64,000 nt of DNA from assembly GCF_988242995.1 (NCBI RefSeq), contig NZ_OZ547043.1. The stretch is one strand, 5' to 3'. The notes under the pieces are model-generated. The model did no database searches and had not been told where the DNA came from. It worked only from the letters and a program-made list of their open reading frames with translations. Both the position numbers and the translations under genes were made by a program. Below, piece by piece: positions 25,806 to 26,159 of this stretch (positions within the stretch are counted from its first letter, which is position 1; every line of letters starts with the position of its first letter).

Positions 25806-26159
25806 CGCCATTTACCTTCATGATAGTTCAATTCGAATCAATATGTGATTGGTTTTGATTAATCCTGACACTATTTTTTCAGGAAGGCAATGACCATTTT
25901 TTGACTTTTTGCCAGGGAAGTTGTTGTTGATTTTGAGTGTGGAAAGATTTAATGGAATGTGTAATTCAATTAACTAAATGAATTTAAATGAATAATTATT
26001 TCGTTGTGTGAATCCCACTCTATCCATGTGGAATTATTTGCGGGTCGCGTCACATTTAATCATAAATAATCTTGTTGTGATTACTTTTGAAAATTAGAGT
26101 GAGTGCACAACATTCCGGGTGTGTGGAATACCCGGTTACCTCTTCTTCAGGAGATCGTT
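25806..26159. promoter_or_regulatory. ulaG / ulaABCDEF divergent control region
   Basis: 354-bp AT-rich intergenic region between divergent genes; contains TGTGA-containing CRP-like half sites and repeated aatgaat motifs; individual operators not resolved. Confidence 0.5.

Follow-up and report, generated by a model that had tools for sequence, protein, structure and literature searches.

The 354-bp spacer between the divergently transcribed genes ulaG and ulaA is very probably the known control region of the Escherichia coli L-ascorbate (ula) regulon, with its UlaR, IHF and CRP architecture laid out along the spacer. This control region and its regulators are already known, having been worked out between 2004 and 2008. 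What the present analysis adds to the known scheme is the placement of the individual sites, a spacing of whole helical turns between two arrays of half-sites, and a predicted hairpin in the ulaA leader.

Gene context and conservation of the ulaG-ulaA spacer

The window (the whole 64-kb stretch of DNA that was analysed) carries ulaG on the minus strand, starting at 25805, and ulaA on the plus strand, starting at 26160, as given by the RefSeq annotation of the best-matching E. coli genome (99.6% identical); ulaG and ulaA were also the annotated features under the E. coli genome matches. The region between them is:

25806-26159 (no strand assigned): divergent ulaG/ulaA spacer, 354 bp, bounded by the RefSeq gene starts

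The original prediction had described a 354-bp AT-rich ulaG-ulaA spacer, and its coordinates proved exact by RefSeq and by comparison with E. coli K-12 MG1655, which holds the same 354-bp spacer at 4,419,626-4,419,979 with three base differences (window positions convert to MG1655 U00096.3 by adding 4,393,820). The G+C content is 34.7%, against 51.8% for the whole window. Downstream of ulaG lies ulaR (23878-24633, minus), whose product of 251 aa contains the Pfam domains HTH_DeoR and DeoRC, while Pfam assigns UlaG, annotated as L-ascorbate-6-phosphate lactonase, to the metallo-beta-lactamase fold and UlaA, annotated as PTS ascorbate IIC, to EIIC-GAT. Divergent ulaG and ulaA flanks with a DeoR-family ulaR gene downstream of ulaG are the gene context of the ula regulon.

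The stretch 25700-26260 was matched over at least 80% of its length by 5219 of 5426 complete E. coli genomes. For comparison beyond E. coli, the spacers of 80 other enterobacterial species, ranging from Escherichia to Hafnia, Serratia and Enterobacillus, were aligned with that of the window (81 spacers in total). Spacer length is 351-370 bp in most of the 80 other species, and the alignment consists of an almost unalignable centre and two nearly invariant gene-adjacent blocks. Within E. coli, the spacer is unusually polymorphic, with 1059 of 5220 genomes being 90-95% identical over 25700-26260 and the differences being concentrated in the spacer centre.

Half-site arrays at the two promoters

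Two segments of the spacer share the plan AATCA-N5-AATCA-N5-TGATT-N5-TGATT, i.e. 35 bp with four 5-bp half-sites at a 10-bp period. With up to three mismatches allowed, this pattern matched only these two positions in the 64 kb and none in 100 shuffles:

25826-25860 (no strand assigned): array G, putative UlaR operator pair of the ulaG promoter, from pattern match and conservation; dyad centre 25843; half-sites GTTCA 25826-30, AATCA 25836-40, TGATT 25846-50, TGATT 25856-60
26058-26092 (no strand assigned): array A, putative UlaR operator pair of the ulaA promoter, from pattern match and conservation; dyad centre 26075; half-sites AATCA 26058-62, AATCT 26068-72, TGATT 26078-82, TGAAA 26088-92 (TGATT in most genera)

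Array G covers approximately -5 to +30 of the predicted ulaG transcript, and array A spans approximately -49 to -15 of ulaAp with its dyad on the -35 element. Both arrays were present in all 81 spacers with 15-20 of the 20 core positions retained, while the remaining spacer diverges; the half-site cores of array G are at least 90% conserved among the 81 species. Counted over 316 distinct half-sites, the core reads T (286), G (315), A (313), T (258), T (246). The gene-proximal outer half-sites (GTTCA at 25826-25830 and TGAAA at 26088-26092) are degenerate in Escherichia, Salmonella and Citrobacter, and most other genera keep AATCA and TGATT at these positions.

A conserved sequence is thereby found in two four-half-site arrays, one per promoter. 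Provided that a pair of half-sites corresponds to one published operator, as we infer, each array would hold two operators, and the two arrays are best regarded as the probable UlaR operators.

A third array copy proposed by the repeat finder, TGTTGTTGATTTTGA at 25922-25936, is not conserved and varies within E. coli, and was rejected as an operator. The sole other exact TGATT-N5-TGATT in the window, TGATTAGCGTTGATT at 58058-58072 (minus), probably occurs by chance.

The spacer between ulaG and ulaR

Genomic SELEX gave a strong UlaR peak in the ulaG-ulaA spacer, at probe resolution, and a minor peak upstream of ulaR. Within 24634-24740, strong conservation between genera is seen in the 60 bp ahead of ulaR, which contain a TATCAT -10-like hexamer followed by AAATCAA (TGATT at 24653-24657, plus), with weaker half-site-like pentamers 10 bp to either side (CGATA at 24643 and AGATG at 24663). 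These half-site-like elements fit the minor SELEX peak and suggest autoregulation of ulaR. Just past the ulaG stop codon, a perfect 10-bp inverted repeat (CCGGATAGCG ... CGCTATCCGG, 24696-24727) was observed in Escherichia and was absent from the other genera shown; it has no T run on the ulaG strand and may be a REP-like or weak terminator element.

Predicted promoters and translation starts

The following promoter and ribosome-binding elements were assigned:

26072-26100 (plus): predicted ulaA promoter; -35 TTGTTG (26072-77), 17-nt spacer, -10 TAGAGT (26095-26100); transcription start predicted at about 26107
25862-25890 (minus): predicted ulaG promoter; -35 TTGCCT (25890-25885), 17-nt spacer ending in an extended TG (25870-25869), -10 CAGGAT (25867-25862)
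25893-25912 (minus): A-tract aaaaagtcaaaaaatggtca upstream of the ulaG -35, read from sequence only, weakly conserved
25815-25819 (minus): ulaG Shine-Dalgarno GAAGG, 9 nt before the annotated ATG (25805-25803)

On the ulaA side, TAGAGTG and CTTGT are nearly invariant across genera in the 81-species alignment, and the hexamers are weak (7/12), as expected for a CRP-dependent promoter. On the ulaG side, the bases conserved in the 81 species are the TTGC in the -35, the extended TG and, within the -10, A2 and T6; transcription is predicted to start at about 25855, which would yield a 50-nt leader, and the A-tract may be UP-element-like. A consensus promoter scan found neither promoter, as both fall below its threshold (9 of 12). 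The minus-strand promoter which that scan did report (ATCACA-18-TATCAT) was discarded: its -10 overlaps the ulaG ribosome-binding region, its leader would be 8 nt, and the alignment shows no conservation of it. Measured ula start sites were looked for in two E. coli transcriptome papers, which gave operon boundaries at most.

An in-frame ATG lies at 25809-25811, two codons upstream of the annotated ulaG start (ATG GCG ATG). Since GAAGG is 9 nt from the annotated ATG and 3 nt from the upstream one, the annotated start is likelier.

Probable CRP site upstream of ulaA

A scoring matrix for CRP was built from an ad hoc set of 20 classical CRP sites, which is a weakness of the scan. With this matrix, one spacer sequence scored 12.3 bits, which is above the median of the training sites and ranks fourth of the 63,979 positions in the window:

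26036-26057 (no strand assigned): putative CRP site ATTTGCGGGTCGCGTCACATTT (TGCGG-N6-TCACA), centre 26046.5, from matrix and conservation

No other spacer sequence matches TGTGA-N6-TCACA when up to two mismatches are allowed, and the site itself has two mismatches to the 10-base core. The TTGCG...TCACA arrangement is conserved; in 79 of the 81 species, the distance from the start of TCACA (or CCACA) to array A is exactly 8 nt. The centre of the site lies at about -60.5 from the ulaA start predicted at 26107, class I sites being centred near -61.5, -71.5, -82.5 or -92.5. We regard 26036-26057 as the probable CRP site. The second-best matrix match (25957-25978) reached 9.4 bits at rank 20.

As the start is a predicted one, the layout can be likened with that proviso to lac P1 (class I, CRP at -61.5), where a single CRP site likewise lies about 61 bp upstream of a weak-hexamer promoter. 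In contrast to class I promoters such as lac P1, the left half-site at ulaA is TGCGG and not TGTGA.

IHF-like element in the spacer centre

The IHF consensus WATCAANNNNTTR, read as its reverse complement YAANNNNTTGATW, was compared with the spacer, and two adjoining features were noted:

25971-25983 (minus): IHF-like core, TAACTAAATGAAT on the plus strand, matching YAANNNNTTGATW with two mismatches in E. coli; from conservation
25984-26001 (minus): A/T-rich flank on the 5' side of the core, 17 of 18 positions A/T

Among the 81 species, 25971-25983 is the only conserved element in the diverged spacer centre, with T25971 in 73, A25972 in 80, T25975 in 67, T25979 in 79, G25980 in 73 and A25981 in 66 of them, and T25983 and T25984 also conserved. 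The aligned position has at most one mismatch to the consensus in 30 of the 81 species and at most two in 69. An A/T-rich tract thus lies 5' of the core, and the flank is A/T-rich in other genera too. The core keeps a fixed distance of about 134 bp to the centre of array G, with 5 species at 133 bp, 10 at 134 bp and 4 at 135 bp in an unconstrained best-match scan; from the array A centre it is separated by 98 bp in Escherichia and by about 107-108 bp in several further species.

Because E. coli matches the consensus weakly and the window shows no enrichment of it (58 matches against 51 expected), the IHF-like element is placed on its conservation and not on the scan. On this basis, 25971-25983 is the best candidate for an IHF site. 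A 2024 preprint gives the IHF location at ulaGp as unknown.

The AATCAA of the IHF consensus resembles the UlaR-type half-site. A closer IHF match, AATCAATATGTGA at 25836-25848, is the inner palindrome of array G and was rejected as an IHF site.

Repeat and TGTGA-type motifs and alternative readings

The original prediction had drawn attention to aatgaat/aaatgaat repeats at 25975-26005 and to several TGTGA-type half sites, and had expected UlaR operators together with CRP and IHF sites. Two copies of the repeat are indeed present (25975-25983 and 25985-25993), but nothing repeats beyond 25993 up to 26005:

25975-25993 (plus): tandem repeat TAAATGAAT, two copies, period 10, 1.9 copies

The TGTGA-type half sites are present as well, with four pentamers in the spacer, namely TGTGA at 25844, 26007 and 26076 and TCACA at 26050. 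When compared with 1000 dinucleotide shuffles of the spacer, AATGAAT occurred twice against 0.31 expected (P=0.034), the TGTGA/TCACA pentamers four times against 1.46 expected (P=0.054), and a close direct repeat of 9 nt gave P=0.067. The repeat and the pentamers are thus borderline against chance and are not the source of the statistical distinctness of the region.

As for the three kinds of site that had been expected, a probable CRP site and two arrays that we assign to UlaR could be placed, and the IHF-like element could be placed on conservation. The motifs that had been seen by eye coincide with these sites in part: the first copy of TAAATGAAT overlaps the IHF-like core and one pentamer belongs to the CRP site, but the second copy and the TGTGA at 26007 are not conserved. 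Motif scanning, which had been named as a check, returned a CRP match at rank 4 of 63,979 and two unique arrays, but a weak IHF match to a consensus that is not enriched.

Three other readings of these motifs were weighed. The tandem repeat could itself be a functional operator and not part of an IHF site, in that two phased TGAAT half-sites might, for instance, make up a third UlaR site at mid-loop. The 10-bp period of TGAAT-N5-TGAAT is that of the arrays, each half-site having one mismatch, and TGATT-N5-TGATT-like pairs occur at the repeat position in some genera, e.g. TTGATTTATATTGATT in Raoultella. However, only the first copy is conserved; the second, which lies in the A/T-rich flank of the core, matches at 25989-25992 in 17-38 of the 81 species and is broken in K-12 by A25991G. 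Beside the array half-sites there is no counterpart of the conserved TAW, which lies four bases upstream of (T)TGAT and fits an IHF frame; the repeat is borderline against chance (P=0.03-0.07), and two operators per promoter have reportedly been counted, two UlaR sites at ulaGp being also given in the 2024 preprint. We consider a third UlaR site at the repeat unlikely. The pentamers, in turn, could mark multiple CRP half-sites, with at least two CRP sites serving both promoters, as their excess over expectation and the 9.4-bit match at 25957-25978 might suggest. Against this, the TGTGA at 25844 and at 26076 belong to the arrays as their (G/T)TGATT half-sites, with scores of only 6.6-7.0 bits under the CRP matrix, neither the TGTGA at 26007 nor the 25957 match is conserved in the alignment, and CRP reportedly acts on ulaABCDEF only. 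Activation of ulaABCDEF by CRP is also stated in a paper citing Campos 2004. The TCACA at 26050-26054 is the sole one of the four pentamers that belongs to a CRP site, and a multiplicity of CRP sites appears to us decidedly improbable.

The assignment of the arrays themselves could be questioned in the same way, since the tie between UlaR and the arrays is an indirect one: the AATCA(A) half-site resembles the IHF core, and an array position (25836-25848) is the only match to the IHF consensus at up to one mismatch in the spacer, so that the arrays might be bound by a factor other than UlaR, with the true UlaR operators elsewhere in the spacer. Yet no other spacer element combines repetition with conservation, the published two operators per promoter agree in number with two arrays that each hold two site pairs, and four half-sites fit a tetramer; moreover, the arrays overlap both promoters, as expected of repressor sites, and the conserved AATCA is also found at the minor SELEX site upstream of ulaR. 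We attach hardly any probability to binding by another factor and retain UlaR as the probable ligand of both arrays, with a single CRP site at 26036-26057 and the IHF-like core at 25971-25983.

Spacing of the arrays

The array centres (25843 and 26075) are 232 bp apart in Escherichia, or approximately 22 helical turns. Across the 81 spacers, the centre-to-centre distance was 231-232 bp in 11, 240-244 bp in 68, 246 bp in one and 251 bp in one, with none at 233-239 bp. At 10.5 bp per turn, these classes amount to about 22, 23 and 24 turns, and as the distances never fall at 233-239 bp, the length changes by whole helical turns. The short class has at least three separate origins (Escherichia, the Pseudescherichia group and two of the four Buttiauxella). 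The classes are partly inherited, and the quantisation is underlain by only about four to five independent length changes. Whole-turn spacing, as required for two sites on the same helical face, is thus accompanied by at least three independent shifts of about 10 bp, which are few events. The quantised spacing fits a loop between the arrays and is suggestive rather than proof of it.

Predicted hairpins in the ulaA leader

Two hairpins are predicted in the ulaA leader:

26115-26135 (plus): ulaA 5' UTR hairpin, arms CCGGGTGT (26115-26122) and ATACCCGG (26128-26135), 8 pairs and a 5-nt loop, approximately +9 to +29
26140-26153 (plus): small hairpin in which CTCTT (26140-44) pairs with the ulaA Shine-Dalgarno AGGAG (26149-53); predicted in most orthologs

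Minimum-free-energy folds placed the first hairpin at the same position in most orthologous leaders despite their different sequences, and 46% of the 72 distinct leaders had a contiguous stem of at least 8 bp, compared with 5.7% of shuffles; 58 different sequences occur in the arms. In the well-aligned subset of Escherichia, Citrobacter and Salmonella, both sides vary in five of the eight pairs, with pairing in 92% of cells; neither shuffles nor slid registers came close to this pairing in that subset. The Enterobacter-group alignment was left out of the pair counts, as its stems lie in inconsistent registers. Judged from these sequences, the predicted hairpin is kept by compensatory changes across the Enterobacteriaceae while its sequence turns over. 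The Shine-Dalgarno hairpin, with 72% paired and one pair changing on both sides in the close subset, has weaker support than 26115-26135.

RNAalifold predicted no pairs on a MAFFT alignment of 41 leaders, which we attribute to hairpin arms too diverged for sequence alignment, and the hits of a covariance model derived from the close subset came mainly from within it. The folding energy of whole leaders was weakly better than that of shuffles (median z -0.65, against -0.13 for a control segment). Rfam 15 returned no family for the spacer and the leaders, the only hit being a chance-level 18.8 bits to a eukaryotic lncRNA family with a gathering score of 60.

Reading the leader hairpin as an intrinsic terminator or attenuator was rejected: the stem is followed by TTACCTCTTC and not by a U run, in the orthologs as well, so that the hairpin is not a terminator, and a terminator scan gave no match at 26115-26135. 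Stabilisation of the mRNA or tuning of translation may be its function. In Vibrio cholerae, the ulaA leader is a target of the small RNA VqmR. No report of either ulaA leader hairpin in E. coli was found, and the ulaA leader hairpin appears to be undescribed.

It is conceivable, and we propose it only tentatively, that the leader hairpin and the Shine-Dalgarno hairpin form a post-transcriptional or mRNA-stability element of the ascorbate transporter operon and that the distance between the arrays is selected for whole turns (22, 23, 24). If true, the selection on array spacing would be comparative evidence for the loop in vivo.

Natural variants of the region

The divergent E. coli allele of APEC E956 carries 26 differences in the 354 bp (7% divergent). 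All eight half-sites are free of them, as are the IHF-like core, the promoter hexamers and the hairpin stems; one lies in the CRP left half-site, three in the CRP spacer and three in the hairpin loop. In E. coli E138 (NZ_AP022351.1), an IS1 is located within the spacer, equivalent to window position 26022 (approximately) onward, and the segment from ulaA to most of ulaE is deleted; the ulaA promoter, the CRP site and array A are lost.

Proposed mechanism

The E. coli ula regulon reportedly has two operators in each promoter that share a common conserved sequence, full repression of each promoter is said to need the operators of the other, IHF is said to aid formation of a loop, and cAMP-CRP reportedly affects ulaABCDEF only. 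The tetrameric repressor is likewise said to be released by ascorbate-6-phosphate. Repression by UlaR and IHF and activation of ulaABCDEF by CRP are described in work citing Campos 2004 and Garces 2008. Such work further states that UlaR is tetrameric on DNA and dimeric in the free state, that ulaADEFG is derepressed in a delta-ihf mutant, and, in the 2024 preprint, that there are two UlaR sites at ulaGp. The parts played here by UlaR, IHF and CRP are taken from this literature. The analysis itself shows the sequence elements, that they are unique in the window and conserved, and the quantised spacing, and from the mapped elements we infer which element belongs to which protein as well as the start sites.

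Each of the divergent promoters would be covered by one 35-bp array, with two half-sites in one orientation and two in the other; such an array could accept four recognition helices, which would fit the DNA-bound UlaR tetramer. Array A lies between the CRP site and the -10 and over the ulaA -35, and UlaR bound there would exclude RNA polymerase and its contact with CRP. Array G begins just past the ulaG -10 and reaches 30 nt into the transcript, where bound UlaR may block open complex formation or promoter escape. A bend by IHF at its candidate site between the arrays, which is 134 bp away from array G and 98 bp away from array A, might allow UlaR on both to join in one loop. L-ascorbate-6-phosphate would break the UlaR tetramer and free both promoters, and after induction ulaA would still need cAMP-CRP at about -61, as a class I promoter.

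Comparison with known systems

To our knowledge, neither the strict 10-bp half-site arrays, nor the turn-quantised spacing across genera, nor the ulaA leader hairpin has been described before. The locus, flanking genes and 354-bp spacer are those of the E. coli ulaG-ulaABCDEF region (Campos, Baldoma, Aguilar, Badia 2004, J Bacteriol 186:1720; Garces et al. 2008, Biochemistry 47:11424). All published ula features are compatible with the mapped elements, the site coordinates given here being independent predictions. The practical value of the analysis lies in a base-level map of the eight half-sites, the CRP site, the probable IHF core and both promoters, which current resources seem to lack.

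Oligomeric DeoR-type repressors that use several phased operators with looping, act cooperatively at a distance and are combined with CRP as co-activator are also represented by GlpR (glpD, glpTQ/glpACB), DeoR (deoO1/O2/OE) and AgaR, and IHF is also involved at glp. Compared with these systems, the ula region differs in its half-site, which is TGATT, and in the arrangement of its operator sets on two divergent promoters, with mutual repression through one loop.
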